Shown here in pieces: positions 7,760 through 63,862 of a stretch of 64,000 nt of DNA. The translations under genes were made by a program, and so were the position numbers. The first letter of the stretch is position 1, and every line of letters starts with the position of its first letter. Source of the stretch: Candidatus Levyibacteriota bacterium (lineage in GTDB: Bacteria > Patescibacteriota > Microgenomatia > Levybacterales > UBA12049); contig PLZJ01000002.1 of the NCBI GenBank assembly GCA_003152105.1, positions 469,682 to 533,681 of the forward strand, given 5' to 3'. The notes under the pieces were generated by a model. It ran no database searches. It saw only the letters and a list, made by a program, of their open reading frames with translations, and was not told the DNA's origin.

Positions 7760-8131
7760 TCAATTATTTTTTACTTTTGCCTTTTTAATAAGCTTTTCTT
7801 TATGCTCTTCGAGTTTTGCTTCTGTTAAATTTTCTGCATTAATAATACTGTTTCTTGCATGTTTTGAGGTATGTATGAGTTCATCTAATTTTAGGTTTAT
7901 GGCTGCTGCATCTCTATTCTGTTTATGTTGTATTAAAAAAAGTAATAAAAATGTTATGACAGATACTCCTAAATTAAAAATAGACTGCCAAAGAGAAGAG
8001 TATTTAAAGATAACACCGCTTACAAACCAGCCAAATACAAGAAGAACCGCAAAAAAGAAGGCAAGTGGAGAACCTATTGCTTTAACTGTGTGTTTTGAGA
8101 AATGTCGAAATAACTCATGTAACGAAGACAT
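7760..8131 (-). CDS. Low-affinity iron permease family membrane protein (PF04120-like)
   Basis: Motif FLIQHKQNRDAAAINLKLDELI; start chosen at internal Met (ORF extends to 8197 and would overlap sodA start). Confidence 0.6.
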   Translation of the reverse strand: MSSLHELFRHFSKHTVKAIGSPLAFFFAVLLVFGWFVSGVIFKYSSLWQSIFNLGVSVITFLLLFLIQHKQNRDAAAINLKLDELIHTSKHARNSIINAENLTEAKLEEHKEKLIKKAKVKNN

Positions 8132-8165: not shown

Positions 8166-8807
8166 ATGTATTTAGTAGCGTTGTACACTATTTTCATGTT
8201 TACCCTCCCAGAACTTCCATATGATTATGATGCATTAGCTCCTTTTATTAGCGCAGATATTCAGCACTTACATCACAGTGCACATCATGCAGCGTATGTT
8301 AAAAACTTAAATACTGCTCTTGAGAAATATCCCGAATGGAAAGATAAATCAATCGAAGAAATTATTACGTCATTAGATAAATTGCCCTCAGATATTAAAA
8401 CAACTGTACGAAATAACGGAGGAGGTCACTATAATCATTCAATGTTTTGGGAAATGATGGCACCGCATAATGGCCAGGCTCCTTCTGGTACATTACTTGA
8501 TAAAATGCAGCATAGTTTTGGGGATGTAAAAACGTTCCAAGATCAATTTAGTCAGGCTGCAGTAAAGATTTTTGGAAGTGGTTGGCAATGGCTTGTATTT
8601 GATAAAGGAGAAGTATCTATGATGAGTACTCCTAATCAAGATTCTCCTTTTAGTCAAGGTAAAATTCCGCTGCTTGGTCTTGATGTATGGGAACATGCCT
8701 ATTATCTTCAATATTATAATAAAAGACCAGATTATGTTACGGCTTGGTGGAATATTGTGAATTGGGATGATGTAGCAAAACGATTAGACAGCGCGATAAA
8801 AACATAG
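8166..8807 (+). CDS. sodA: Superoxide dismutase (Fe/Mn)
   Basis: LPELPYDYDALAPFISADIQHLHHSAHHAAYV and DVWEHAYYLQYYNKRPDYV motifs. Confidence 0.9.
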   Translation: MYLVALYTIFMFTLPELPYDYDALAPFISADIQHLHHSAHHAAYVKNLNTALEKYPEWKDKSIEEIITSLDKLPSDIKTTVRNNGGGHYNHSMFWEMMAPHNGQAPSGTLLDKMQHSFGDVKTFQDQFSQAAVKIFGSGWQWLVFDKGEVSMMSTPNQDSPFSQGKIPLLGLDVWEHAYYLQYYNKRPDYVTAWWNIVNWDDVAKRLDSAIKT

Positions 8808-13277: not shown

Positions 13278-14513
13278 TTAGGCTTTCTTATAAACATAGA
13301 AGAAATCTTTTTGATATCCAGTTAAATATGCCCGTCCACCATTTACCATATTTTGCATCAAAGGTTGATACGTATATTGCCCGCTTCCTAATGGTTCGTA
13401 AACAACAAATCGTACCCAAGCGGCGTTAATATCTAGCTGCATAGCATTTACTGCACCTGCTGCAATTAAGGCTTTTGCGAGAGTTTGCGGTATTAATGAA
13501 TATCCTGCCGCATAAATAAGATTTCCATCTTTTGTAATACCAATGCCAGAACGCCATGTATACATGCTATTGGTTGTTGTAAGACCCCATGTTTGCATAT
13601 TCCAAAGCGATGACGAGGTGATATCTTTTCCATCTTGTACTAGCAGTGGTCCGTTTTGACGTGCACCTATAACATCTGGGGCAAGTGATTCACCAGCATA
13701 TTTTATAATTTGTGGACTTCTATCAGAGAACATCAGGAAAGTTGCATTTCCTGGTTTTAAAGGCAGGTATGTGTGTTTGCCAACAATCATTCCATATCCA
13801 CCATCTTTGTTTAAAAACCCTCCATTAAAGGCTGCAACAAGGTTATTATCTTGCTGTATGTCAAATGGAATTTTTCCTGGTCCAGGATCAGTTGGTCCTC
13901 CTGGTTGAATATATCCCGCAACAGGCAAAACGGATAAGTTAGTCATGTCCATTTTTACAAGAGCAACAACTGCATATGACCTATCCGGATCAGGGCGTAC
14001 AAATGTTCGTGCGATTTCCCATTTCTTTGTCCCAATTGTAATTGGTGTCCAAACACCTTCATTTGGTAAAAGAGTAAAGTGCGTAAGAGGAGGAATAGGA
14101 GTAAGAGTTAGGGTTGGAAGGTTTTGGAATTTAGCAATTTTTGGTAAGACGGTAAATACATGTGAGCTTGGATTTTGAAAATTATATTTAATTTTATTTG
14201 CCTGATCTTCAATTGCAAAAACTATTGATTCAACATTAATAGTTGCTTTATCTCCAATTAAAGGTCGAATAATATTATCAGTGGTATTTGCTAGAAAAAG
14301 AGGATTAACTTCGAGTTCTGTAAATAGAAGAAGTACTGCTAGGACAAAAAATATAATAATTAAAAGTATTGTGGCAGGTAGGGAAAATATATTTTTCAGT
14401 CTTATAATACTTGAATTAGGTAAGTTTTTTTGAGAATTTTGATTATGTTTTTTGTGAGATGTTTTTGTTTTTTCCTTTGTCTTTTTTGAAGAGTTAAGTT
14501 TAGATTTTTTCAT
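13278..14513 (-). CDS. Phosphodiester glycosidase family protein (DUF2233-like), membrane anchored, K-rich N-terminus
   Basis: C-terminal NAMQLD motif and GITKDGNLIYAAG resemble DUF2233/NAGPA-like family. Confidence 0.5.
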   Translation of the reverse strand: MKKSKLNSSKKTKEKTKTSHKKHNQNSQKNLPNSSIIRLKNIFSLPATILLIIIFFVLAVLLLFTELEVNPLFLANTTDNIIRPLIGDKATINVESIVFAIEDQANKIKYNFQNPSSHVFTVLPKIAKFQNLPTLTLTPIPPLTHFTLLPNEGVWTPITIGTKKWEIARTFVRPDPDRSYAVVALVKMDMTNLSVLPVAGYIQPGGPTDPGPGKIPFDIQQDNNLVAAFNGGFLNKDGGYGMIVGKHTYLPLKPGNATFLMFSDRSPQIIKYAGESLAPDVIGARQNGPLLVQDGKDITSSSLWNMQTWGLTTTNSMYTWRSGIGITKDGNLIYAAGYSLIPQTLAKALIAAGAVNAMQLDINAAWVRFVVYEPLGSGQYTYQPLMQNMVNGGRAYLTGYQKDFFYVYKKA

Positions 14514-14773
14514 TTTAAGTTAGTTAATAGTATATCAAAGAATAACTGATGTGAAAACCGGACTAATATTGGGAAATATTCAAATTCATGATTTATAGAA
14601 CCAGGAATAATTAGCTGAACTATTACTTGCATTTATAAAAATAATTTGATATATTTCAATCCGTTTAGCATTAGTAATGGTGAGTTTGGATAAATGAATA
14701 ATAACCCAATATCACCTGCCTATATTCCCCAATGTAATTATTTTTCGTTATGTTTTCAAAGAGGAGGTGAATT

Positions 14774-15097
14774 GTGAAGAAAACAATAATTCTTTTGTTT
14801 ATTGTAACTATTTTTTTAAGTGCACAACCTGCTTTTGCTGATAATGCAGATATTAATAAAGTTCAATCCTTTGTTCAAAGCGTTATTCAACTAATGGTAA
14901 CTCTTGCTGGATTGGTTGCATCTGGCTTTTTTGTTGTAGGAGGATTCCGTTATATAACAAGCTCTGGTAATCCACTGCAATTAGAAAAAGCAAAAAAAAC
15001 AATATTATATTCTGCGATTGGATTAGTGATAGTATTGGGAGCATTTGTTTTTAGTAACATCGTTACTAACCTAGGAACGCAAGCATTCGGTAAATAA
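14774..15097 (+). CDS. VirB2/TrbC-like T4SS pilin precursor (GTG start)
   Basis: Signal peptide + two TM hairpin (LAGLVASGFFVVGGFRYITSSGNP...LYSAIGLVIVLGAFVF); RBS AGAGGAGGTGA 5 nt upstream; precedes VirB6/VirB4 genes. Confidence 0.5.
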   Translation: MKKTIILLFIVTIFLSAQPAFADNADINKVQSFVQSVIQLMVTLAGLVASGFFVVGGFRYITSSGNPLQLEKAKKTILYSAIGLVIVLGAFVFSNIVTNLGTQAFGK

Positions 15098-15105
15098 ATC
15101 GAATA

Positions 15106-16368
15106 ATGAGAAAAGTTAATATATTAATTCTTGCACTAAGCTTGTTTTCAAGCTCGTCTTCTTATGCTTTTGCAAGCAATAATGAAATTCCCAATTTTAC
15201 GAATTCTACTATACATTTTGTTTCTGCTTTTGCAGCTTTATTGTTTATACTTTTCTTAATTAGGGGAGGTTATTATTATATTATTTCTAGTGGTAATGCT
15301 GAAAGATTAATTTCAGCCAAAAGAACAATACTAAATGCCAGTATAGGCTTACTAATTATTATAGCATCTACATTTATAAGTTCTTATCTTCAAAGTACAT
15401 TTAATTCAAATTTCAATACTCACACTGGTAATTCGATTATATTACCTAAAATTCAAGAATCAACATCTTCATCTGGTATTTCTCAAGCGTTAAATGATGC
15501 TATTTCTGGGTTTTTACAGGTGCTGATACAAAGCGCAACAAAACCAACAATTGATGGAATAATTGGATTTTTGTCGTCAACTCCAAGTTTAATACAAAAT
15601 CAAACAATTTTTCATTTTTGGTTAATTATGGTTGGGATCGCAGATTCATTATTTGTTCTTGTAATTGTGTTATTAGGATTGCAAATTATGAGCTCGGAAT
15701 CCTTGGGATTTGGTGAAGTAAATATTAGAAGTGTTATGCCTAAATTAATGATATCGTTTATAGGAATTCATTGTTCAATTTTTATATTACAATGGTTTAT
15801 TGACTTGTGTAATATATTATCAACCACGTTAGTGAATATAACAGGTGGGATTGATCATGCATGGATTATAGATGCTTTTTCTTCAGGCGCTATTTCTATT
15901 GGATCTGAACCGATTATTACTTTAATTTTTTTATTGTTATTTTTAATTTTATCAATAATTTTGCTTCTTTTTTATATCAGTCGTTTAATAATAATTGGTT
16001 TAATAGCTGTTTTATCACCGTTAATATTTTTAATTTGGCCAATTCCTAGATTTTCAGATTTTGCAGAAATCACATTAAAATCCTACCTAGTTACAATTTT
16101 TACGGTATTTATTCATTTGGTAATTATCGAACTTGCATCAGCAATGTTAACTGTTCCAGGTGAAAATGTACACGATAATACATTTATCTCAGTATTAATA
16201 GGTGTAGGCTTACTCTTCTTATTAATAAAAACGCCATCGGTAATGATGCAGTTTATTTTTTATACAAAAGGGGTAAATATAATGAAATCATTCGCTAATC
16301 AAGTTATTAATGTTGCAAGTTCAAGGAGAAGCGTTGGTACGGAATTAGTTAAACATAATGTTGTATGA
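15106..16368 (+). CDS. VirB6/TrbL-like polytopic membrane protein with N-terminal VirB2-pilin-like domain
   Basis: N-terminal ~100 aa paralogous to upstream pilin (FILFLIRGGYYYIISSGNAERLISAKRTILNASIGLLII); >=6 further TMS. Confidence 0.5.
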   Translation: MRKVNILILALSLFSSSSSYAFASNNEIPNFTNSTIHFVSAFAALLFILFLIRGGYYYIISSGNAERLISAKRTILNASIGLLIIIASTFISSYLQSTFNSNFNTHTGNSIILPKIQESTSSSGISQALNDAISGFLQVLIQSATKPTIDGIIGFLSSTPSLIQNQTIFHFWLIMVGIADSLFVLVIVLLGLQIMSSESLGFGEVNIRSVMPKLMISFIGIHCSIFILQWFIDLCNILSTTLVNITGGIDHAWIIDAFSSGAISIGSEPIITLIFLLLFLILSIILLLFYISRLIIIGLIAVLSPLIFLIWPIPRFSDFAEITLKSYLVTIFTVFIHLVIIELASAMLTVPGENVHDNTFISVLIGVGLLFLLIKTPSVMMQFIFYTKGVNIMKSFANQVINVASSRRSVGTELVKHNVV

Positions 16369-16856
16369 AAACTACTAGAATACCAGCTCAAATTACAACT
16401 ATAGAAGATACAGTGGCTGGCAAATTGACATTAAGACAACTTATTTTATTAATAATTCCAATTATTTTATCGATGATGATGTATATATTTATTCCTAAAT
16501 ATTTTAATTTCTCAACTCCAAAGATAATTATTTCTTCTTTCCTAATAATAATTTCATCTGTAGCATCTATTAATACTAAGAATAGATTGATAATAGATTG
16601 GATTGTGATCCTTATCAAATATATTTTTCGGCCCAAATATTTCGTCTACGAAAGATCTAGTATTACGTTTAAAGATAAATTGAAAATGAACTTAATAAAT
16701 AATAAAAATCATGAAAATATTAAGAATAAAATTGAAGAAAAAACCATTTCGACAATATTCAGTTACGGTAAAATTTCACTTAATCCAAAATTTTCTATTA
16801 GTTTTAAGCCTGTTAAAAAAGGAGGTATAAAAGTTGCTATATATAAAATATCGTAA
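16365..16856 (+). CDS. VirB3/PrgI-like small T4SS membrane protein
   Basis: Short N-terminal segment then TM (LTLRQLILLIIPIILSMMMYIFIP); position immediately upstream of VirB4. Confidence 0.35.
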   Translation: MKTTRIPAQITTIEDTVAGKLTLRQLILLIIPIILSMMMYIFIPKYFNFSTPKIIISSFLIIISSVASINTKNRLIIDWIVILIKYIFRPKYFVYERSSITFKDKLKMNLINNKNHENIKNKIEEKTISTIFSYGKISLNPKFSISFKPVKKGGIKVAIYKIS

Positions 16857-17424
16857 TAAAGGTAGTTCTGCAAACCAGATTAAAATTAAAGAAGTAAAAG
16901 ATGGGATATTATGTTTACCAAATAATTTATATAGTGGTATTTTGGAAACCTCTTCTGTTAACTTTGAGTTAAAGAGTATATCTGAACAAGAAATATTATT
17001 ATATTCATTTGAGACGTTTTTAAATTCGCTCCCGTGTCCGATACAGATTTTAGTTCGTACTCGCGAAGTAGTACTGGAAGAATATTTAGAAAGAATTGAT
17101 TCCTTAGGTTTGAAAGAGAATGAGATAATTTATAAAAAGCAATTGAAAAGTTACTCTGAATTTATAAGCAAACTAATTGTAGGAAATAAAATTCTTTCAA
17201 GAAAATTTTATGTGATATATTCATATAATTGTACAAGTGAATTTTCCGTAGTTAAGGAACACATGCAATTGCTGCAAAATATTCTAGTTTCTGGATTTGA
17301 AAGATTGTCTATGAAGGCAAATCCTCAGTCTTCATTGGATATTTTAAAAATCTTTTATACTTTTTATCAACCTGAAAGATCTAAAGTGCAAACCTTGACC
17401 AATGGACTGTTTGATAATATATGA
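16834..17424 (+). CDS. VirB4/TrbE/CagE-family ATPase, N-terminal fragment (separate ORF; either split gene or frameshift)
   Basis: N-terminal VirB4-like region (VNFELKSISEQEILLYSFETFLNSLPCPIQILVRTREV); ends in ATGA overlap with next ORF; 196+585 aa = typical VirB4 length. Confidence 0.5.
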   Translation: MLYIKYRNKGSSANQIKIKEVKDGILCLPNNLYSGILETSSVNFELKSISEQEILLYSFETFLNSLPCPIQILVRTREVVLEEYLERIDSLGLKENEIIYKKQLKSYSEFISKLIVGNKILSRKFYVIYSYNCTSEFSVVKEHMQLLQNILVSGFERLSMKANPQSSLDILKIFYTFYQPERSKVQTLTNGLFDNI

Positions 17425-19178
17425 TCAATTTTTTCAATTTTAATAGCTTTTTTAGAAAAGACACCCAAAATGGCGAAGGAAAAGCATATGATTTTTTGTT
17501 AAAAGATCAAAATGCTATTGATTTAATATCATATGATGGACTTGAAGAGAATAGTACATTTATAAGAATGGGTGATTCATATATTCGAACTCTATTTATT
17601 TCGGGTTATCCATATACAGCAAGTTCAGGATGGCTCTCGCATTTAATAAACTTTAATCAGAATGTAGATATATCTTTTCATATTGAAGAAGTTGATTCTC
17701 AATTAGCTTTACCGAAACTGAACAGAAAAATTACAGAACTTGAGTCTACAAGACGAGCAATGGAAAAACAGGGCAGATTTATAGGATCAGAAATTACAGA
17801 TCCTTTAGAATCTGCGATAGAGTTAAAAAATAAAATTCAAAGAGGACAACAAAAAATGTTTCAATTGTCAATATATATACTTTTGCATTCATCCACAATA
17901 GAGGAATTAAATAAATTAACTAGAATTCTAGAGACACTCTTGGCAACACGACTGTTTTTTTCAAAAATTTCTACATTTCAGCAAATTGAAGGCCTGCAAT
18001 CAATTTTGCCTAGAGGTGAGGATATATTAAAACATAAACGAAATCTTGATAGTGAATCGGCATCTTTAACTTTTCCTTTTATTTCTTCAGAGTTGGTTCA
18101 AGAATCCGGAATTTTATTTGGTATAAATAAATCTAATAATTCATTAGTAATTGTAGATCGATTTTCACTTACGAATGCTAATAGTATAATTTTTGCACAA
18201 TCAGGAAGTGGTAAGTCATATACCTCAAAAGTGGAGATTTTAAGACAACTTATGCACGGTACAGATGTGATAGTAATAGATCCAGAAGGTGAATATAGAC
18301 AACTGTGTAATTCAGTAAAAGGAACTTATATTTCATTATCTATTAATTCAAAAGAAAAAATTAATCCCTTCGACTTAAACGGAAGTTTAGTAAATTTTGA
18401 AGATAAAGTACAGCAATTAACTGAATTATTTTCATTAATGCTGGATGGATTTACCAGTAGAGAAAAAGCAATTATAGACAAAGCTATACTTAAAACTTAC
18501 AAGATATTTGGGTGGACGAGTAAAAAGAAAGGAATAGAATTTCCATTATTGAAAGATCTTTACAGTACTTTATTAAAAATGGAAGAATTTGATCTCAGTA
18601 ATAGGATAGAAAAATATGTTAATGGATCATTATCTAAATTGTTTAATAAACAAACTAATGTGGAATTAAAAAATAGGTTAATAGTATTTGAGATAAAACA
18701 TTTACCTGAGTCAATTAAATCAATTATGATGTTGGTATTAGCTTCACATATTAACGGGATTGTTAAAGTATATCCAAAACGGAGGCTATTAGTAATAGAT
18801 GAGGGGTGGAAATTGCTTGAAAATAAAGAAACAGCTAGATTCATGACAGACTTGGTCAGACGCGGAAGAAAATATTATTTGGGAGTAAATATTATCACAC
18901 AACAGGCAAACGATTTCCTTAACAATGAATATGGACGAGCTCTAGTTTCGCAATCTTCACTGAGGATTTTAATGAAACAAGATACAACCACAATTAAAAA
19001 AGTTGTGAATGAATTTGCTCTGTCAGAATATGAACGTAATTTTCTATTAACCTGTGATAAAGGTGAAGCTTTAATAATAGCTGATCAAAATCATGTATCT
19101 GTTCAAATTGTAACTTCCAAGTCTGAACATCCGCTGCTCACAACAGATCCTAAAGAACTGTTAAGAACAAGTGTATAA
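17421..19178 (+). CDS. VirB4/TrbE/CagE-family T4SS ATPase (central and C-terminal ATPase domain)
   Basis: Walker A SGSGKS, Walker B LLVIDEGW; VirB4-type flanking conservation. Confidence 0.85.
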   Translation: MINFFNFNSFFRKDTQNGEGKAYDFLLKDQNAIDLISYDGLEENSTFIRMGDSYIRTLFISGYPYTASSGWLSHLINFNQNVDISFHIEEVDSQLALPKLNRKITELESTRRAMEKQGRFIGSEITDPLESAIELKNKIQRGQQKMFQLSIYILLHSSTIEELNKLTRILETLLATRLFFSKISTFQQIEGLQSILPRGEDILKHKRNLDSESASLTFPFISSELVQESGILFGINKSNNSLVIVDRFSLTNANSIIFAQSGSGKSYTSKVEILRQLMHGTDVIVIDPEGEYRQLCNSVKGTYISLSINSKEKINPFDLNGSLVNFEDKVQQLTELFSLMLDGFTSREKAIIDKAILKTYKIFGWTSKKKGIEFPLLKDLYSTLLKMEEFDLSNRIEKYVNGSLSKLFNKQTNVELKNRLIVFEIKHLPESIKSIMMLVLASHINGIVKVYPKRRLLVIDEGWKLLENKETARFMTDLVRRGRKYYLGVNIITQQANDFLNNEYGRALVSQSSLRILMKQDTTTIKKVVNEFALSEYERNFLLTCDKGEALIIADQNHVSVQIVTSKSEHPLLTTDPKELLRTSV

Positions 19179-19773
19179 CAGATCATTTATTAATTTATAT
19201 AATTTTACTTTTGAGTTAAAAATATTATTATTACTTTTTTTAATAATATTGCTTCTTCCAATTATAGGAATATTTATATTAACTCAAGAAGGATTTAGTA
19301 AAGTTTCCAATTATTTGGTTAACAATACCGCTCATTCAATCAGATTAAATTATCCAGATGGCAAGCTTTACAAAATAATAAATATTCAAACAGTTTGGCC
19401 TTTACATGGCATAACTACTCTTGAATTTGGGCAAAATGATTTTCCATACCAACCATTTCATACTGGTATAGATATTGCAGGACCATTTGGTTTTCAAATA
19501 ATTTGTGCCATGAGCGGGAAAGTAGTTTATGCAGGAGAAATATCATGGGGTTATGGTAAGCATGTTATCGTAAATAACGATAACAATATTCAAACCGTTT
19601 ACGCACATCTCGATAGTATAGCTGTTAAGAATGGAGACGAATGTATAACGGGGAAAACAGTTATAGGTACCGAAGGTCAAACTGGTTGGGCGACAGGACC
19701 ACACTTGCATTTTGAGATTGATCTTTGGGGGATTCCGGTAAATCCAAGAAATTTTATTTATGGGAATCCTTAA
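19171..19773 (+). CDS. M23 (LytM-type) peptidoglycan endopeptidase, membrane anchored
   Basis: HTGIDIA ... GPHLHFEI M23 zinc motifs; overlaps virB4 stop; likely T4SS-associated cell-wall hydrolase. Confidence 0.8.
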   Translation: MYNRSFINLYNFTFELKILLLLFLIILLLPIIGIFILTQEGFSKVSNYLVNNTAHSIRLNYPDGKLYKIINIQTVWPLHGITTLEFGQNDFPYQPFHTGIDIAGPFGFQIICAMSGKVVYAGEISWGYGKHVIVNNDNNIQTVYAHLDSIAVKNGDECITGKTVIGTEGQTGWATGPHLHFEIDLWGIPVNPRNFIYGNP

Positions 19774-34233: not shown

Positions 34234-34628
34234 CTCACATTGATCGTACCATCTCCTACTCTGAAGAAATCAAATACGTCCAATCCAAACAAGCCAACAG
34301 AGAGCGAGACTTTACATCCGGTGGTTGGGCACAGATCTACAGTAGAACTACAATCTATTCCAGAGCAGTCAACGTGGATCGTGTTTTCTCCATCGTATGT
34401 TATTGTGTAGGTTGTATCGTACTTATCTTGCGAACTTATGACGAGTTGTCCACCAACTGGTACATTGGCAAGGTTATTACCAACAATTGAAACGCCGCTT
34501 GACCTTGGTTGACAACTTTCTAGCCAAACGACAAGTCCGACAATAAGAACGATAGTAGATACGACGAGTCCAAAGGCAGAAATATAATAACGCATGCATT
34601 TCCTTTTGTTCTTTTTAGTAAGCGACAT
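34203..34628 (-). CDS. Membrane-anchored Cys-rich hypothetical secreted protein (GC-rich islet 1, first gene)
   Basis: N-terminal TM; 8 Cys in ectodomain. Confidence 0.35.
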   Translation of the reverse strand: MSLTKKNKRKCMRYYISAFGLVVSTIVLIVGLVVWLESCQPRSSGVSIVGNNLANVPVGGQLVISSQDKYDTTYTITYDGENTIHVDCSGIDCSSTVDLCPTTGCKVSLSVGLFGLDVFDFFRVGDGTINVRWPDGYAIQT

Positions 34629-34654
34629 ACTACGTATAGCTTTATACGCACAAT

Positions 34655-34798
34655 ATCACTTACTAAATGTGTATTTTTCCGCAACTTGTGAATGTGCAAA
34701 TGAAAAAAAACAAGATATAAAATGCTTATTTCTATAACTGTCTTTTAGCCATGGGAGTATAGCAGAATAAAGAGAGCACTTCAAGTGCTATAGGATTA
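34655..34798 (-). promoter_or_regulatory. Conserved repeat element copy 1: minus-strand promoter (TTGAAG-17-TATACT, TG-extended) plus conserved ~120-nt 5' leader
   Basis: 15-mer TTGTGAATGTGCAAA and blocks GGAGTATAGCA.AAT / CAAGTGCTATAGGATTA shared with 49433-49563; ATCACTTACTAA shared with 63134-63145. Confidence 0.5.
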
Positions 34799-34902
34799 TT
34801 TGCGTTATTATTTTTCGTACAATAACTTTTTATCCTTATATTACTCTTATATGTATATTTATTACTTGACTTACCGAAACAATTACATTGTAATTAATAC
34901 AT

Positions 34903-37472: not shown

Positions 37473-37707
37473 GGCAGCATCCTTTCTATAAAGTTTTATC
37501 TACTGAGGAGCATTCTAAACACAACATATGTTCACAATGCCACTCAGTAAATTAACACACGTACTATAAAAGAGCTACGAAAAGTTTGGATACGCAGCTT
37601 TTGCCTATCGTCCTTTTTCGTCTTGGAATTGTAGCAAAAAGAGGCACAACAGTCAACTACTACAGGATAAAAGAACCGTTACCACAAGGGGACAAGTAGT
37701 AGTAATA

Positions 37708-46503: not shown

Positions 46504-46908
46504 ATGAAAAAATTATATCCCTCAGACAAAATATATGTTGGCAAATCACATGTTGCAAAAAATGAACGTGGAGTTTTTGCAAAAAGAGCTATTAAAAAAA
46601 ATGAACTTATAGAAACGTGTCCGGTAATTGAAGTATCAAAACAAGATGCAAAAAACCTGCGAGAAAGTATTTTAATTACCTATTTTTATTATTTTGGGAA
46701 AAAGAAAGAACGATTCGTAACTGCTCTTGGATTTGGATCACTCTATAATCACACCTATTCACCTAATGCTGTGTATAGTGTTAACCATAAAACCCAAGTA
46801 CTTCAATTTAAAGCAATCAGAGATATTAAAAAAGATGAAGAAATAACCGTAAATTATATCTTTGCCTATCCTAATGCAAAAAGTCCTCTTTGGTTTGAAA
46901 ACGCTTAA
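46504..46908 (+). CDS. SET-domain protein (putative protein-lysine methyltransferase)
   Basis: RGVFAKRAIKKNELI, NHTYSPN (NHSCxPN-like), EEITVNY. Confidence 0.65.
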   Translation: MKKLYPSDKIYVGKSHVAKNERGVFAKRAIKKNELIETCPVIEVSKQDAKNLRESILITYFYYFGKKKERFVTALGFGSLYNHTYSPNAVYSVNHKTQVLQFKAIRDIKKDEEITVNYIFAYPNAKSPLWFENA

Positions 46909-46910
46909 AC

Positions 46911-47702
46911 CTATTTAGCTTTAGGAAATTGAAATGAATTTACCATTTGTGTAAATAGATTATCTTGGTTACTTGCGCTTTGAATATACATTTCATAGGT
47001 TGACCCATTGTAATAGGCATATGCTGCATCAGTTATTCCAGGAATAGACCCTTGTGTTAGAAGGAGTACGGGAACACCATTTACCGTAGTATCTGTTTGA
47101 TTTTTAAACGCTTTTGGACTTACGCTACTGTCGTTTGATGCATTTTCTAAAAAGGTCTTATAACTTTGATAAGAGCTAAAATTATTGTTTGCCTCAATTA
47201 AAATAGTAAGTTTTGAGCCTGTTAATACCACAACATGCACTGGATCCGCACTGTTTACCGTATAATCTGGCGACGTAAAATCATACCCATTTACTGATGA
47301 AACATCTTGATTGTTTGCTGATTCGACCCAGTTTGAAGGATAGTTAAGAGTAAAATGTAAGCTTGCATCACTATAATTTTTCCAATTAGTAGTTTGAGCA
47401 GAAGTTGAAGAAGCTGATGGGTTTTGTGCACCTGGTGGTTGTATAGTAACAGGAGGAATGCTTTTAGTTTTTACTATGGTTTGCACTGGATTTGAAGTAA
47501 TACTTAGTTGCCCTTGCGCTTTTCCAACCATATAGAAAATGACACCTGATACAAGTGCTGCAAGCAGACAACAGAGCAGAATTAGAATTACTCTTGGAAA
47601 ATGAAAATGCTTGGAAACAATTGGAGGTTCTTGCGTTGCAGGTTGTTGGGTAACAACAGGTTGCGGTTGTTGAACTGGCTGTTGTTGAACAGAATTATCC
47701 AT
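46911..47702 (-). CDS. Membrane-anchored surface protein with Q/P-rich N-terminal tail (paralogous anchor module to 8863..9552)
   Basis: HFPRVILILLCCLLAALVSGVIFYMVG matches HIPRILLVLFACLISGVLFGVAGYF. Confidence 0.4.
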   Translation of the reverse strand: MDNSVQQQPVQQPQPVVTQQPATQEPPIVSKHFHFPRVILILLCCLLAALVSGVIFYMVGKAQGQLSITSNPVQTIVKTKSIPPVTIQPPGAQNPSASSTSAQTTNWKNYSDASLHFTLNYPSNWVESANNQDVSSVNGYDFTSPDYTVNSADPVHVVVLTGSKLTILIEANNNFSSYQSYKTFLENASNDSSVSPKAFKNQTDTTVNGVPVLLLTQGSIPGITDAAYAYYNGSTYEMYIQSASNQDNLFTQMVNSFQFPKAK

Positions 47703-47897
47703 ATCTATACTATTCCATAGTTACCAGTATTAGTCAAGAAAAGCTCAAGGAGGTAGAGAATGTTAAAACAAGGATTCTAAGTTGTGGGTAATGTTTTAAG
47801 AATGGACGCGAAGGGTAGACTACAATATGTAGTAAAGGTCAATTGACCACTACCCAACGCGATGCGTCCACTCACAGAATGTGCTGCGGTTTTGCCG

Positions 47898-48266
47898 TTA
47901 GGCTTTTTGAAGAACCAGTCCCTTTACCCTTTCAGGTTCGAGAGTACTGCCTCCAGGTGGGAAGAAAACGCCACGTTCGCCGACGAATGCGACAGAAAAA
48001 GCGAGTCGATCGTCACTTATTACGTTGAAAGAGGTGACCATTAGGCTCGCAAAGTACCTGAGACGTTCTTCATCGGTGACAGCAAGCCAGTCAAAATCTT
48101 CTGTCGCCTCGGCGAGCCATTTGTAGGTTACGTAGAGGTACTGATTGTCCTCTTCGCCCTCGATCCATGCGCGCTCGACTTCTCCCCGAGTAACAGGTTC
48201 GCCAGAGCATTGTCTTTCGAGTTGTCCTCCTGCGTAGTGTGCGAGAACTTCGTTTGTGATTTTCAT
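47898..48266 (-). CDS. Hypothetical acidic protein (GC-rich islet 3, gene 3 of 3); start at internal Met with RBS
   Basis: ORF; GAAAGGAAAC RBS before MKITNEV. Confidence 0.3.
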   Translation of the reverse strand: MKITNEVLAHYAGGQLERQCSGEPVTRGEVERAWIEGEEDNQYLYVTYKWLAEATEDFDWLAVTDEERLRYFASLMVTSFNVISDDRLAFSVAFVGERGVFFPPGGSTLEPERVKGLVLQKA

Positions 48267-48297
48267 GTTGTTTCCTTTCGTATTCGACGTGTTGTTT

Positions 48298-48930
48298 TTA
48301 GTGTTGGTGTACAGCAAACGAATCAGGATCGAATGCTTCGACGGCTCGGTCGGGCGTGATGGTGACAGTCTTGGCTTGGGCATCTACAGCATTGATCGTG
48401 AAGATCTGTTGCTTGGTCTTGCCCAACTGGAAAGGTGGAGGCGTTGTTTGCTTTGGAAGAACCTCAGCTAGCATCGCCAGCACATATCCTTGGACGCTGA
48501 AAAGACTCGGAGTCAGGACGAAGGGAGCAAACGGATCTTCAAGAAACGCTATTCCTTCTCCTTCAATCTCAAGCTTAACGAGTGTCGAAGATTTGTCGCC
48601 TCCAAGCGGTTTGAGATAAATGGGATTTCCTTCGGAAACCACGAGTTGTCCCAGGTCTGAGGGCTCAAACTGAGTCCTTAAGTTTCCTGGACGAATAACT
48701 CGTTCGTTTCCGCATGAACAGCGTTTTTCGGAACCTTCCCGAACTGCATCCCAGCGAGGATCAGTAATTCCACTTCTTCCTCCTGGAAGTTCGACGTAGA
48801 CGTTCTGGGTCAAGTCTGCTCTCTGCTCAACGAGCAAATTGCAGGCCGCCAGATACAGTTCTTCGTCGAATTGAGTTCGGTCTGTCTGAACTCCACGAAC
48901 GTACGAAATTGCGTCTTGGACTGTTTCCAC
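48298..48930 (-). CDS. Hypothetical protein (GC-rich islet 3, gene 2)
   Basis: ORF. Confidence 0.35.
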   Translation of the reverse strand: METVQDAISYVRGVQTDRTQFDEELYLAACNLLVEQRADLTQNVYVELPGGRSGITDPRWDAVREGSEKRCSCGNERVIRPGNLRTQFEPSDLGQLVVSEGNPIYLKPLGGDKSSTLVKLEIEGEGIAFLEDPFAPFVLTPSLFSVQGYVLAMLAEVLPKQTTPPPFQLGKTKQQIFTINAVDAQAKTVTITPDRAVEAFDPDSFAVHQH

Positions 48931-48982
48931 TCTATTTCTCCTTTAAGATTCTGCTTGTTTCCCAGGTAAGGAAAGAGCAGGT

Positions 48983-49333
48983 TTATGCCTGTGAGTGAGC
49001 CTGTTCTGCGTGTCTTCTGATCGCAACTGCGATGCATGATCCTCTGGCAGCGAGACCTTCTCGGACCGCCGTCTGCATTGGTTGATCGTAGCCCCTTATA
49101 GTGAAGAGAGCATTGAACTTGGTATACAAGTCCTCAAATCTCTTCGTTAGGGCTCGCATCTTCAACGCCGTATCGTCGTCCACATGAGCAACGAGCTCTT
49201 GGGAGACTGGTTGGTCGGACGGAAGCAGAATTGCCAGTTGTGCCTCCACTTGGTCTAGCTCCACAAGGATTTCTCTGCCTTGTTGGCAAACCTCGTCGAA
49301 GTCATAACCGAGCTGTAGGTATTGTAGCTTCAT
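48983..49333 (-). CDS. Hypothetical protein (GC-rich islet 3, gene 1)
   Basis: ORF. Confidence 0.35.
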   Translation of the reverse strand: MKLQYLQLGYDFDEVCQQGREILVELDQVEAQLAILLPSDQPVSQELVAHVDDDTALKMRALTKRFEDLYTKFNALFTIRGYDQPMQTAVREGLAARGSCIAVAIRRHAEQAHSQA

Positions 49334-49432
49334 GAGTACTCCTTTTTATTGTTATTTGTTCTTTCCTTAACCTGGGAAAGAAAATAGGCATAAATACCCA
49401 CTTTCTTCCTCAGGCTAATTGGGAACAATGTA

Positions 49433-49563
49433 CCGCAACAAATTGTGAATGTGCAAAAATAACTAAAATTAGCACGAAATAAACTGCTTATGTCTAAATA
49501 TGCTAATTTTTAGTTAAAGGAGTATAGCAAAATTAAAGATCTCTAACAAGTGCTATAGGATTA
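49433..49563 (-). promoter_or_regulatory. Conserved repeat element copy 2: minus-strand promoter TTGTTA-17-TATACT (TG-extended) plus conserved leader with 13-bp-stem hairpin
   Basis: Shares ~80% identity over ~120 bp with 34679-34798; leader contains ACTAAAAATTAGCA ... TGCTAATTTTAGT inverted repeat. Confidence 0.5.
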
Positions 49564-49633
49564 GATTTAAGTTAAATGAAGCTTGCAGTAGTGGAAGATG
49601 TTAGAACCTTATTTTACTAAAGTTTTATTTTAA

Positions 49634-50335
49634 TTAAAGTATTGAAGTAGATAATTGTTCCCATTGTTTCTTTCTTAAAGTTAAGTCTGGATTAGTCTCT
49701 ATGATTTTCTTTGCCTTTTCCAAGTATTCCCTAGCTTTATTCTGGTCATCATTCTTTATTATATTTGCAATTCTCATATACCCTCCTGCTACCCAAACAT
49801 CTTTGCTGTATTTATTTGGTGCATCATCAGACGCTTTAAGTTCTTCCAAAGCTTTTTCAGCTCTTTCTAAAGCAGTTTTATCTCCAGCTTTATATTCACA
49901 AGTTGCTAGATGAACTTTCATATCTGCTAAAACTGAATTTCTTTTATGTGTTTCTGGAGGATTATTTTCCATGTTTTCCACTGCTTCTTTATATGATTTT
50001 ACCGCTTCATCAAATTCTCCTAAGTCTTCCTGTAGTTCTGCAAGATTATATAGTGGTATTCCAAGAGATTCTTTAATACCACTTTGCCTTGCTAAATCAA
50101 CAGAAGCTAGCATTTCATATTTTGCTAAAGTTAATATTCTTTTGCTTTTGTGCAAGCTGCCATAAACTCTTAGGGTTATAGAACGACAAGCAAGACCTTC
50201 TGAAAATCCTAAGTCATCATTTTCTTTGTCATAAGCAAATAATGCATCATCATTAAAGGTTAACGACTCTGTAAACTGCTCTTTTTCTCTCGCTTTTGCA
50301 GCATTACCATGTAATATTCTTCCTTTACTTTGCAT
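49634..50335 (-). CDS. TPR-like helical repeat protein
   Basis: Repeated A..Y...A...EAV / KA.E.L TPR-like helices. Confidence 0.45.
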   Translation of the reverse strand: MQSKGRILHGNAAKAREKEQFTESLTFNDDALFAYDKENDDLGFSEGLACRSITLRVYGSLHKSKRILTLAKYEMLASVDLARQSGIKESLGIPLYNLAELQEDLGEFDEAVKSYKEAVENMENNPPETHKRNSVLADMKVHLATCEYKAGDKTALERAEKALEELKASDDAPNKYSKDVWVAGGYMRIANIIKNDDQNKAREYLEKAKKIIETNPDLTLRKKQWEQLSTSIL

Positions 50336-50896: not shown

Positions 50897-51406
50897 TTAG
50901 ATCCATCGTCTCACTTTATTTTTGTAATCTACCCATTGCTTGCCAAATTGATGCTCAAGTTGTGCTTCTTCTCTTTTAATCATTAAATTAATAAGTGGTA
51001 AATGCAAAAAAGTAATAAGTATGCCAAAAATTGTACCAAGCAGTAGAGAAGCTCCTAGAAAAATAAAAAAGTTTCCTCCAAGATAAAGAGGATTTCTTGA
51101 ATATCTAAATGGACCTTGTGTAATAAGATGTTTTTGGGGTTTTAAGACAATGACTTTCATTTGCGCGCGGTAAAAGTAGTATGTTGCCCACACTCTAATA
51201 CTATATCCAATAACTAAAAATAGGATACCAATTGCAAAGAACAAGAATGAGTTAAATGGGGTTATTTTAAAGAGTAAATCTATTAGTGAACCAATAAATG
51301 CAATGATGAAACCAAAAAGTATTGCTGGTATATTATTAATTGCACTTTTTATAAGTATCACATTAAAAGTATACCATCTACTTACCATTGTTTTGTGGTT
51401 AAACAA
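50897..51406 (-). CDS. Isoprenylcysteine carboxyl methyltransferase (ICMT/PEMT)-family membrane methyltransferase
   Basis: RYSRNPLYLGGNFFIFLGASLLLG ... EEAQLEHQFGKQWVDY. Confidence 0.65.
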   Translation of the reverse strand: MFNHKTMVSRWYTFNVILIKSAINNIPAILFGFIIAFIGSLIDLLFKITPFNSFLFFAIGILFLVIGYSIRVWATYYFYRAQMKVIVLKPQKHLITQGPFRYSRNPLYLGGNFFIFLGASLLLGTIFGILITFLHLPLINLMIKREEAQLEHQFGKQWVDYKNKVRRWI

Positions 51407-59350: not shown

Positions 59351-60028
59351 TTAGTTTGTACGCTCAAAGGTGAAGTTTATGCTATAAACACTTGACTCAT
59401 CTCCATATTGATTTTTATATTGTAGCTGGAGTGTATTTGCTCCATTTGGCGGTGAATAACAAAGTGTTGAAAACGCTTGATAATCATTCCATCCTGCGTT
59501 ATTAATATTTTGTTTTCTCATAAGTCCACTCGTATCTCCACCTCCTGGTGCGTCAACAACACAAAATGTTTGTGAAGAATTCATGCTAATTGATTGACCG
59601 TTTGTTGGATAGGTAATATTCATTTGAGGAGGATTAGAAGTATGTGGAGATGAAGTAGGAGTTGGGGTAACTGTTGGCGTAGGAGAGAGTGAAGGTGTTG
59701 GAGTTAGGGTAACTGTTGGAACTTGTGTTGGACTTGATTGTTGTATTTGATTACTTGTTTGCGAATCGGGTACTGGTGTATCTGTTGGTGCCTCTGTAAT
59801 GCTTGGTGCTTCGGTAGTTTGGGAACTTGTCTTACCTCCTCCTTTACTACCAAAAATATATGTTGCTCCAGAAAATACAAGCACGATTGCAAGCAAAACA
59901 AGAGATACAATACTTTTGTTATGTTTTAACCACACAACATATTTATTTTGAAAACTGAGTTGTTTTAAAAGTGGTGTATTATCTAGTTCGACTTTCTCGT
60001 TTTGATCTTCTTGAGGGGAATCTTTCAT
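59351..60028 (-). CDS. Membrane-anchored surface protein, PT-rich linker, unknown C-terminal domain
   Basis: N-terminal tail + TM (SIVSLVLLAIVLVFSGATYIFG) + TPTP linker. Confidence 0.4.
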   Translation of the reverse strand: MKDSPQEDQNEKVELDNTPLLKQLSFQNKYVVWLKHNKSIVSLVLLAIVLVFSGATYIFGSKGGGKTSSQTTEAPSITEAPTDTPVPDSQTSNQIQQSSPTQVPTVTLTPTPSLSPTPTVTPTPTSSPHTSNPPQMNITYPTNGQSISMNSSQTFCVVDAPGGGDTSGLMRKQNINNAGWNDYQAFSTLCYSPPNGANTLQLQYKNQYGDESSVYSINFTFERTN

Positions 60029-60076
60029 TCCTATACTATTCCATATAGTGCCTAGTATGTCAATATATTGGTAGCT

Positions 60077-62600: not shown

Positions 62601-63059
62601 TTACAGTCTATCTAGCGTACGTTCGTCACAGTCGATAACCATTCCTTCTCCGTAATATAAATCTGGAGAGCGCCAAATCAAGCCGAATTCGCGTTTTCCG
62701 AAGTAGGAAGGAAATTCCATTCCATACTCCATGTGAGTGACGAGAATAAGGATGTCACCTTCATCTGCTTTATCTTTAACAAGCCCAAGAGCTGCAGGAA
62801 GATTTTCGGGATGGTTGTCTTCAGCCCAGAGTACCTCATGTTGCTCGAAGTCGTCTTCTGTCCAGCCGAACATTTCGCACAGTACTTTGGCGCTGTCAAC
62901 GGCTCGAGGAGCAGTAGAGGAGAGAAGGAAGAAAGTATCTCTATCTCCGGCAAGTGCTTCAATTTTTTCACCTGCTTGCTCCATTTGCTCTCGTCCCTCT
63001 TCGCTTATCCGCCTATCGTAACCGTGTTTTCCGTGACGCAGGATAACCAATTTTTTCAT
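62601..63059 (-). CDS. Histidine phosphatase family protein (SixA/phosphoglycerate-mutase-like), islet 4 gene 1
   Basis: RHG motif VILRHGK at N-terminus; ILILVTHMEYG (His) later. Confidence 0.55.
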   Translation of the reverse strand: MKKLVILRHGKHGYDRRISEEGREQMEQAGEKIEALAGDRDTFFLLSSTAPRAVDSAKVLCEMFGWTEDDFEQHEVLWAEDNHPENLPAALGLVKDKADEGDILILVTHMEYGMEFPSYFGKREFGLIWRSPDLYYGEGMVIDCDERTLDRL

Positions 63060-63133
63060 TGTTTTTCGTTCTCCGTTTTGTTGAGTTCACTAAGTAAGTG
63101 ACACGCTGAGTACCAACATATGATACACAATGC

Positions 63134-63290
63134 ATCACTTACTAATGTTTATTCTATAAGAAGTTATTAAGGTGCAAAATGCTCGAAACACCACAATACA
63201 ATGCTAGTATGTATGTTTGTTTTTGAGCTTGTGGATTATATAACAAGACGGACTATATTGCGAACTGCAAATAAATAATATAAAGGTTAC
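63134..63290 (-). promoter_or_regulatory. Conserved repeat element copy 3 (more diverged), upstream of islet-4 operon
   Basis: ATCACTTACTAA(A)TGT, GTGCAAA and AATGCT blocks in the same order and spacing as copy 1; candidate minus-strand promoter TTCGCA-18-TATAAT. Confidence 0.4.
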
Positions 63291-63862
63291 CAGATATAGG
63301 GTATAAGTGCTTTTGTTTTGTTCATATAATCTACATATTCTTTTGGAAATTTTTGACGCATATGTTTTTCTTCTATTTTCACACTATATATGAAATAGAA
63401 GAGCATAATGGCAAGTGGTATAAGCCAAAATAAACCAATCGTTACCGTTGAACCTAACATAGCAAGGAGAAGACCTGAATATATAGGATGTCTGATATAG
63501 GCATAGGGACCTGATTGTATGAGTTCTGGCTTTTCTCTTTGCGACATTGGCATTCCCCAATTACTGCCAAGATAATATCTTGCCCAAATAGCTATTCCAA
63601 TACCAGCTGCGCAAAGCAACACACCCAAAAAGGATATGAATGGATTAAAAAACAAGTTTGAAGTCTGTTTATGCCACATAAATTGACTAAACAGTGGTGT
63701 GCGGATTTCAAGTATCACAAGTAGTATTATAACTATGCGAACAAATCTTTCTGCTAACCAATTACCACCTTTAATGCTTTTCTTAACATGAAAACTAGAA
63801 ATAAACCAATACAATATAAAAATAACCCACAAAAAAGGTATTATTTCGACGAATATAGGCAT
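63287..63862 (-). CDS. ICMT/PEMT-family membrane methyltransferase (second paralog)
   Basis: YAYIRHPIYSGLLLAMLGSTVTIG ... EEKHMRQKFPKEYVDY. Confidence 0.65.
   Translation of the reverse strand: MPIFVEIIPFLWVIFILYWFISSFHVKKSIKGGNWLAERFVRIVIILLVILEIRTPLFSQFMWHKQTSNLFFNPFISFLGVLLCAAGIGIAIWARYYLGSNWGMPMSQREKPELIQSGPYAYIRHPIYSGLLLAMLGSTVTIGLFWLIPLAIMLFYFIYSVKIEEKHMRQKFPKEYVDYMNKTKALIPYIW

Follow-up and report, generated by a model that had tools for sequence, protein, structure and literature searches.

Prophage morons are add-on transcription units whose composition is atypical. Horizontally acquired genes may also be tied together by a shared promoter motif, as in the PmrA-controlled effector regulons of Legionella and Coxiella, where the genes have in common a binding site of ~20 bp. 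In T4-type phages, promoters and stem-loops are combined in mobile regulatory cassettes termed PeSL (Arbiol et al. 2010, PMC2839356; Comeau et al. 2014, PMC4122927). Here we describe islet 3, a block of three genes (A, B and C) on the minus strand of a 64-kb stretch of DNA from a Candidatus Levyibacteriota bacterium (contig PLZJ01000002.1, positions 469,682 to 533,681; hereafter the window). The host is an uncultured bacterium represented by a scaffold of ~1.14 Mb with a G+C content of 36%. We consider it likely that islet 3 is a recent, moron-like horizontal acquisition of ~1.55 kb, expressed from a promoter-leader that has paralogues in the same genome. As a horizontal acquisition it is of an ordinary kind, a small accessory islet in which one gene stems from an uncharacterised mobile family. 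The unusual part is the structured promoter-leader that it has in common with three other islets.

Islet 3 resembles a moron in that it is short and foreign in composition, has a predicted promoter of its own and a 3′ hairpin, lies between resident genes and encodes proteins of unassigned function. The resemblance extends to gene B in other genomes, where it forms a unit of promoter, gene and terminator. There are also differences. Islet 3 is located outside a prophage: its genes have no match in PHROGs, there are no phage genes around it, and neither sequenced phages nor IMG/VR contain relatives. Unlike a moron terminator, its 3′ hairpin is without a U tract and does not have the canonical form.

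Composition and coding content of islet 3

The segment 47801-49300 is the G+C maximum of the entire window, with a value of 0.499 (for 1500-nt windows, the mean is 0.357 and the standard deviation (s.d.) 0.034; z ~ +4). The G+C-rich block extends from ~47800 to ~49340, with 0.45-0.58 per 100-nt step, and its limits follow the genes: it spans from the start codon of the first gene to ~100 nt past the last stop codon, where G+C falls at ~47800. Codon composition deviates as well. The G+C content at third codon positions (GC3) is 0.54 in A, 0.45 in B (z = +2.6 in the window) and 0.52 in C, compared with 0.267 ± 0.081 for the 82 open reading frames (ORFs) of the window, among which the three genes are the top three outliers. 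The DNA of islet 3 is compositionally foreign. Its horizontal acquisition is well supported, because G+C and GC3 lie 3-4 s.d. above the host and because homologues of B are host-like at 51-66% G+C and outliers in the three hosts of lowest G+C. An earlier sequence-only reading of this DNA had estimated a raised local G+C by eye and proposed that the block was likely horizontally acquired; the sliding-window and codon-composition analyses back both statements.

The three genes are co-oriented and tightly spaced, with gaps of 52 nt between A and B and 31 nt between B and C. Gene A (48983-49333, minus strand) encodes 116 residues from an ATG and is preceded by the ribosome-binding site (RBS) AAAGGAG at 49339-49345. 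Gene B (48298-48930, minus strand; 210 residues, GTG start) has the same RBS sequence at 48938-48944, and gene C (47898-48266, minus strand; 122 residues, ATG start) has GGAAA 9 nt ahead of its ATG. These coordinates and spacings are as given in the sequence-only reading, and its statement that no domain is recognisable also stands, since none of the three products has a match in Pfam, PHROGs, PADLOC or NCBIfam. Its description of the last gene as very acidic was overstated, as all three products are acidic, with isoelectric points of 5.07 (A), 4.71 (B) and 4.56 (C).

As judged from sequence searches, A and C are strict ORFans, that is, ORFs for which no relatives are found. Each retrieved only itself among 5.8 billion proteins, and neither has a match among PDB sequences or a tblastn match in phage or plasmid collections. 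They are also unrelated to the N-terminal extensions of the fused B proteins described below. Both genes have the codon structure of coding sequences. The difference in G+C between the first and second codon positions (GC1-GC2) is 0.31 in A, 0.23 in B and 0.25 in C, compared with a random expectation of 0.02 ± 0.05-0.07 from 2000 stop-free ORFs of the same composition (p < 0.0005 for A, p = 0.0005 for C, and p ≤ 0.0005 for all three). This coding-type excess of GC1 over GC2 argues that A and C are probably translated despite having no relatives. They are best explained as lineage-specific passengers or partners. The name orphan operon, used in the sequence-only reading, fits A and C but does not hold for B, which has a large family.

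A high G+C content could in principle be native, set by amino-acid content, expression level or RNA structure. The mRNA of this region is indeed unusually structured, as the leader together with gene A (48915-49515, minus strand) folds at -186 kcal/mol (z = -5.3 relative to dinucleotide shuffles), and GC1 and GC2 are partly set by the acidic, Ala/Gly/Arg-rich proteins. GC3, however, is free of protein constraint, and at 0.45-0.54 compared with 0.27 it is not approached by any native gene in 84 kb (the window and 20 kb of scaffold past its ends). Moreover, homologues of B are host-like in GC3 at 51-66% G+C, so the B family has no need of an intrinsic 50% G+C. We consider a native origin very improbable.

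A joining of DNA from two organisms during metagenome assembly was also considered, given that the scaffold is of metagenomic source and that two short-read contigs end at 47756 and 47776, in the spacer between C and the neighbouring 263-aa gene. The window is matched at 100% identity by contigs of six independent Logan run assemblies and by one JGI contig, which together cover both junctions of islet 3. One of them (L002; 3121 bp, from a separate run) by itself covers 46543-49663 at 100% identity, including both junctions, and the 3′ junction is further crossed by L016, L020, L021 (JGI) and L022; the same context is found in scaffolds of >1 Mb. The 122-aa gene C is likewise called identically in the ENA, JGI and Logan assemblies. 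The agreement of independent contigs across both junctions excludes a chimeric assembly, and the probability that we would assign to it is negligible.

Promoter-leader copies and their cargo

The promoter-leader of islet 3 occupies 49334-49570 on the minus strand. A consensus scan predicts a sigma-70-type promoter at 49521-49549 (TTGTTA-17-TATACT, with an extended -10 TG). The start of its -35 hexamer is formed by the last 3 nt of an upstream box, TAATCCTATAGCACTTG (49547-49563, minus strand), and the same 17-mer recurs without change ahead of the 34.6-kb islet (34782-34798; two matches compared with 0.25 expected). On this basis, we infer promoter activity ahead of islet 3. The predicted 5′ leader of ~187 nt (49334-49520, minus strand) contains hairpin 1 (arms at 49501-49515 and 49461-49474), a conserved box TTTGCACATTCACAA (49443-49457, minus strand), hairpin 2 (49371-49414) and the RBS of gene A. 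In contrast to the genes that it precedes, the leader has a host-like G+C content of 0.25-0.37.

Homologous copies of promoter and structured leader, all on the minus strand, are located at 34595-34805, 37473-37680 and 63060-63285. From TAATCCTATAGCACTTG to TTTGCACATTCACAA..TTG.GG, 133 nt align with the upstream region of the 34.6-kb islet at 75% identity (z = 25 relative to shuffles), and the conserved leader element mentioned in the sequence-only reading is therefore real. Similarity links the 34.6-kb leader to the 63.1-kb copy (z = 8.9) and the latter to the 37.5-kb copy (z = 5.5). A hidden Markov model of the leader detects exactly four copies in the window and no further copy in the 20 kb of scaffold past its ends.

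The four leaders have a common plan consisting of the promoter, a short hairpin, a long hairpin of ~20 bp, 10-35 nt of spacer and the RBS. The promoter layout TTGnnn-17-TATACT/TACAAT/TATAAT is present in the other copies. The consensus structure of the four-sequence alignment has 30 pairs, with 88% of the cells paired. Changes on both sides are seen in 13 of the 30 pairs, compared with 5.1 ± 1.8 in column shuffles (0/500 reach 13) and 0-3 in slid controls, though this comparison involves four sequences and a structure predicted from the same alignment, which lessens its weight. No Rfam family reaches its gathering score in the window, and nothing meaningful is found at E ≤ 1 in 47700-49650 and 63040-63310. 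The 17-mer yields three chance matches in IMG/VR, and a degenerate leader pattern yields 77 matches in metagenome contigs, none of them homologous beyond the pattern. The sequence comparisons are best explained if the promoter-leaders of this genome are paralogous modules of one family, with at least four members.

Each leader precedes its own gene set, at 33.56-34.6 kb, 36.69-37.47 kb and 61.59-63.06 kb, and in islet 3. The sets are mostly ORFan, with GC3 values of 0.34-0.54, and G+C rises by at least 10 points at the start codon in 4/4 islets. The cargo proteins of the four islets show no homology to one another, and the proteins of the other islets have no match in Pfam, PHROGs, PADLOC or NCBIfam. 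There is also no conserved 3′ element among the four.

A simple scheme would account for these features. The ~1.55-kb block would have been taken from an unsampled donor of ~50% G+C. Transcription would start at the sigma-70-type promoter and proceed through the structured, A+T-rich leader of ~190 nt, with A, B and C read as one tricistronic mRNA, and each of the other leader copies would similarly drive a different, G+C-enriched and mostly ORFan gene set. The 5′ hairpins may have a regulatory or stabilising role. The acquisition of islet 3 would be recent, because it is the least ameliorated of the four islets; the direction of transfer, like its recency, is deduced rather than seen. That four unrelated foreign gene sets follow one covarying leader raises the question of how bacteria with small genomes wire acquired genes into expression.

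Several points weigh against this reading. No related genome without islet 3 was found, and exact-protein look-ups returned only copies of 100% identity; as no empty site has been seen, the insertion is deduced from composition only. No donor can be named, because the nearest homologue of B is only ~55% identical. Islet 3 shares with classical genomic islands an atypical composition (G+C of 0.50 compared with 0.357), but it is not flanked by direct repeats and there is no tRNA gene within the 64 kb. Unlike such islands, it also has no integrase in the gene ranges screened: neither an integrase nor a transposase is among the precomputed Pfam matches for ~38.3-64 kb and 1-10.4 kb of the window and for the 20 kb past its ends, while the genes at ~10-38 kb were not screened as a set. 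A terminator consensus scan finds no canonical terminator after C. The leader is known from one genome and in four copies only. Finally, the co-transcription of A, B and C is a prediction, as is the use of the promoter.

The arrangement of the islets can be compared with that of PmrA-type regulons, as unrelated foreign genes are found under one regulatory signature, but here the common element is a promoter and structured leader of ~130-240 nt that is homologous among the islets. Similar to PeSL, the leader is a repeated sigma-70-like promoter with stem-loops that adjoins ORFans in a plastic region, and its four copies have covarying hairpins. Unlike PeSL, it is chromosomal and longer (~240 nt), and the stem-loops follow the promoter and are part of the 5′ untranslated region (UTR). 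These stem-loops are without a U tract and do not resemble terminators, whereas those of PeSL are terminators, and all of the recovered contigs are identical.

The precedent of PeSL (PMC2839356) bears on an alternative in which the repeated promoter-leader is a recombination substrate, acting as a landing pad or mobile regulatory cassette that captures, exchanges and deletes foreign ORFs. Four leaders of the same orientation lie within 30 kb, each ahead of unrelated, G+C-enriched cargo; within the 84 kb every leader has such cargo and every islet has a leader, and the break in G+C falls at the start codon in all four. Gene A is, in addition, bracketed by a 26-nt imperfect inverted repeat that resembles a recombination scar. 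It is formed by an element in the A-B spacer (48955-48979, minus strand) that is an inverted copy of leader positions 49357-49382, with 23/26 positions identical and one gap (score 36 compared with 13.6 ± 2.3 in 2000 shuffles; z ~10). The leader arm of the repeat overlaps the 3′ arm of the long hairpin, and the pairing of the two arms is absent from the minimum-energy fold of the mRNA. The repeat may be such a scar, or it may form a long-range stem of the RNase III type.

Other observations speak against shuffling. The recovered contigs are identical and give no sign of polymorphism, of an empty site or of a circular junction. A recombinase was not found in the vicinity, and the islets have no conserved 3′ element. 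The leader was not found in other metagenome or viral contigs, and duplication of a promoter region together with shared regulation explains the same data more simply. We regard shuffling as unlikely. The same doubt attaches to its more specific form, in which the ~240-nt promoter-leader would be a chromosomal ‘expression and capture platform’ whose paralogous cassettes recruit and shuffle ORFs by mutual recombination, fusing them at the start codon to promoter, 5′ UTR and RBS. Such a platform would correspond, in bacteria, to the PeSL cassettes of phages, or would act in the manner of an integron with no integron present, and the inverted leader fragment would be a scar of one such event; we give this little credence. 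If the leader does capture or shuffle ORFs, bacterial chromosomes would have a new way of acquiring genes. Shuffling by leaders and a recent moron-like acquisition of islet 3 do not exclude each other.

Gene B and its relatives in other genomes

Sequence searches place B in a real and conserved protein family that is unannotated. A word-indexed search yielded eight homologues with 47-58% identity, of which P0001-P0007 align to B over 88-98% of its length, whereas P0008 is a 117-aa fragment with 52% coverage. A profile search against 1.84 billion representatives extends the family to at least 150 clusters, of which 85 reach E ≤ 1e-10. The majority are free-standing proteins with a length of 200-230 aa. 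A small number are tandem duplications, and in another small number the B domain forms the C terminus of a longer protein (450-720 aa). The extra parts of these fusions have no Pfam or PDB match, and the fused proteins likewise gave nothing in PHROGs, PADLOC or NCBIfam.

The motifs of B comprise W60, C71-x-C73-G74-x2-R77, P81, R85, P108-x-G110, P133, D183, D194 and E198. In an alignment of 55 sequences, W60, S67, C71, C73, G74, R77, P81, R85, P108, G110, P133, D183, D194 and E198 are 82-98% conserved. The nearly invariant signature can be written W...CxCGxxR...PxGG...DPFAP...D...E, and the B of the window holds every nearly invariant column. The protein has no signal peptide by inspection and is therefore presumably cytoplasmic. 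In light of the invariant CxC, Arg and acidic residues, B might be a Cys-dependent (thiol) enzyme or a metal- or ligand-binding accessory protein, but this is a weak guess that we offer with low confidence.

Structure prediction with a Foldseek search had been suggested in the sequence-only reading as a check. The AlphaFold model of B has a predicted local distance difference test (pLDDT) score of 79.7 and a predicted template modelling score of 0.71, and consists of an N-terminal three-helix part and a β-rich body. Foldseek searches of PDB and BFVD with this model gave nothing at E ≤ 0.001. The single-sequence model of C is unusable (pLDDT 38). Sequence searches of PDB with A, C, the B profile and three fusion proteins gave a single match of 26 residues, between the C-terminal β-motif of B and the ‘flagellin hook IN motif’ of chain 6xi1 (E = 0.004).

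This β-motif, IFxINAVD....TVTITxDxxVE, occupies residues ~158-201 of B (48328-48459) and matches a 44-residue repeat that has 16 copies in P0095, a surface protein of 3021 aa. It is probably a common β-hairpin that is uninformative with regard to function.

Relatives of B are found in metagenome-assembled genomes of Candidatus Sungbacteria, Candidatus Saccharibacteria and Candidatus Binatia, and in further metagenome contigs. They are solitary genes with their own promoter and terminator in unrelated neighbourhoods (L003, L004, L007, L009, L010, L011, L100 and L103). A comparison of gene neighbourhoods was also suggested in the sequence-only reading: around six B homologues, tblastn with A and C found no A-like or C-like ORF within 2.5 kb on either side. 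A single genome-contig scan, which was restricted to one peptide pattern, yielded only three loci. Relative to neighbouring genes, the GC3 of B has z-values between -0.5 and +1.2 in hosts of 51-66% G+C, compared with +3.0 in L003 and +5.0 in L004, which are from hosts of intermediate G+C. In these two, B is foreign, as it is in the window.

The DNA common to L003 and L004 consists of only the B gene, a structured leader of ~100 nt and a 40-nt terminator. In L003, the unit is positioned just downstream of tRNA-Lys, with a duplicated tRNA 3′ end at 7826-7846; in L004 it is just downstream of tRNA-Asn. The common leader, upstream of the B homologues (L003 7893-8003, L004 7898-8003), contains GGATAGCT...AGCTATCC with a compensatory A/G-T/C change, followed by CACACGgAGTGTG. 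No Rfam family matches it. Similar terminators are found at 8666-8703 in L003 and 8853-8892 in L004. Among the B homologues in other genomes, only these two share a leader, and it is unrelated to the leader of the window.

A further sign of mobility is seen in L007, where exact 35-bp direct repeats of the terminator sequence ACCATTCTCATTCTGAGAGTGGTTTTTTCTTTTCG (7898-7932 and 8735-8769) flank the B homologue P0006. The arrangement looks like a recent insertion or duplication of a single gene at a terminator, at the end of a cluster for NAD biosynthesis and salvage. By comparison of these loci, B appears as a small unit that has been transferred repeatedly between genomes.

Genes for NAD and nucleoside salvage are near B in 2-3 of ~9 loci (L100 6816-7328, L007 1-7913, and L011 upstream of 6001). 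They include an isochorismatase gene adjoining B in L100, the NAD cluster of L007 and a NUDIX gene in L011. Overall, the salvage-type genes across these loci encode isochorismatase/nicotinamidase-like proteins, NAPRTase, NAD synthase, NUDIX, purine nucleoside phosphorylase and nucleoside hydrolase. Their proximity may be a weak lead to the function of B, though it may also be due to chance.

The sequence-only reading had considered a toxin/immunity or small defence/effector module, and the solitary occurrence of B bears directly on this proposal. In such a toxin-antitoxin, toxin/immunity or anti-phage module, one product would be toxic or act as a sensor-effector and be neutralised by a partner that is small and acidic. 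Islet 3 is comparable to type II toxin-antitoxin pairs in the size and spacing of its genes and in its small acidic products, here three of them encoded on foreign DNA. In addition, B moves as a small unit and is found near tRNA genes (L003 and L004) and, in L100, two genes upstream of a PhdYeFM/PIN pair, with the isochorismatase gene between. Such sites are the kind of place where defence genes accumulate. However, A, B and C have no match in PADLOC, Pfam, PHROGs or NCBIfam even at E ≤ 1, and the homologues of B have no PADLOC match, the 14 bits between P0026 and SspG being noise. Pfam detects neither a DNA-binding antitoxin domain nor a nuclease, kinase or NTase toxin domain. Relatives of B are also absent from sequenced phages and plasmids (tblastn) and from IMG/VR contigs (profile search). 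B is solitary in every other genome examined, its partners in islet 3 do not co-occur with it there, and an obligate toxin-antidote pair would not separate in this way. The proposal is therefore unsupported, and we think it quite unlikely that islet 3 is a module of this type.

The 3′ hairpin and the surroundings of the islets

The 3′ end of the G+C-rich block contains an imperfect 66-nt hairpin, GGACGCatcGCGTTGGGTAG ... CTACCCttCGCGTCC (47804-47869, minus strand), which is without a U tract. The surrounding segment, 47703-47900, folds at -45.9 kcal/mol (z = -2.3). The hairpin is possibly a transcript-end or stabilising structure. It also invites comparison with integron cassettes, which islet 3 resembles in having short, mostly ORFan, foreign ORFs, a resident promoter and an imperfect 3′ palindrome. 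By inspection rather than with an attC model, one arm of the palindrome contains GTTGGGT, but the other has no matching core, and there is no proper R″/R′ pair. Unlike integron cassettes, the islets are dispersed at distances of 3-13 kb with housekeeping genes between them, a separate promoter-leader precedes each of them, and no integrase was seen.

The neighbours of islet 3 are chromosomal genes of an ordinary kind and include those for TPR, SET-domain, ICMT/PEMT-like, LytB and acetyl-CoA carboxylase carboxyltransferase proteins. Farther away are genes for MFS, HlyD, GH18, MgsA, a histidine kinase and a VirB4/TraG-like ATPase.

Paralogues of the PEMT/ICMT family are encoded at 50897-51406 and 63287-63862 (minus strand), each upstream of one leader-islet unit (2/4 units). 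The pair may be left over from a segmental duplication by which the leader was spread.

Another promoter motif, shorter than the leader, is also repeated in the window. It is a 38-nt stretch shared between 47682-47719 and 60008-60045, which reads TATACTATTCCATA on the plus strand and TATGGAATAGTATA in the sense of the minus-strand genes. One copy belongs to the promoter region of the 263-aa gene (46911-47702) and the other to that of a 225-aa gene (59351-60028), and the motif is unrelated to the leader of the islets.

Lastly, the window contains a block of low G+C at ~14000-19500 (0.24-0.30 compared with 0.357), which holds the gene for the VirB4/TraG-like P-loop ATPase (17421-19178). This block may be a further acquired or mobile region, of opposite compositional sign.

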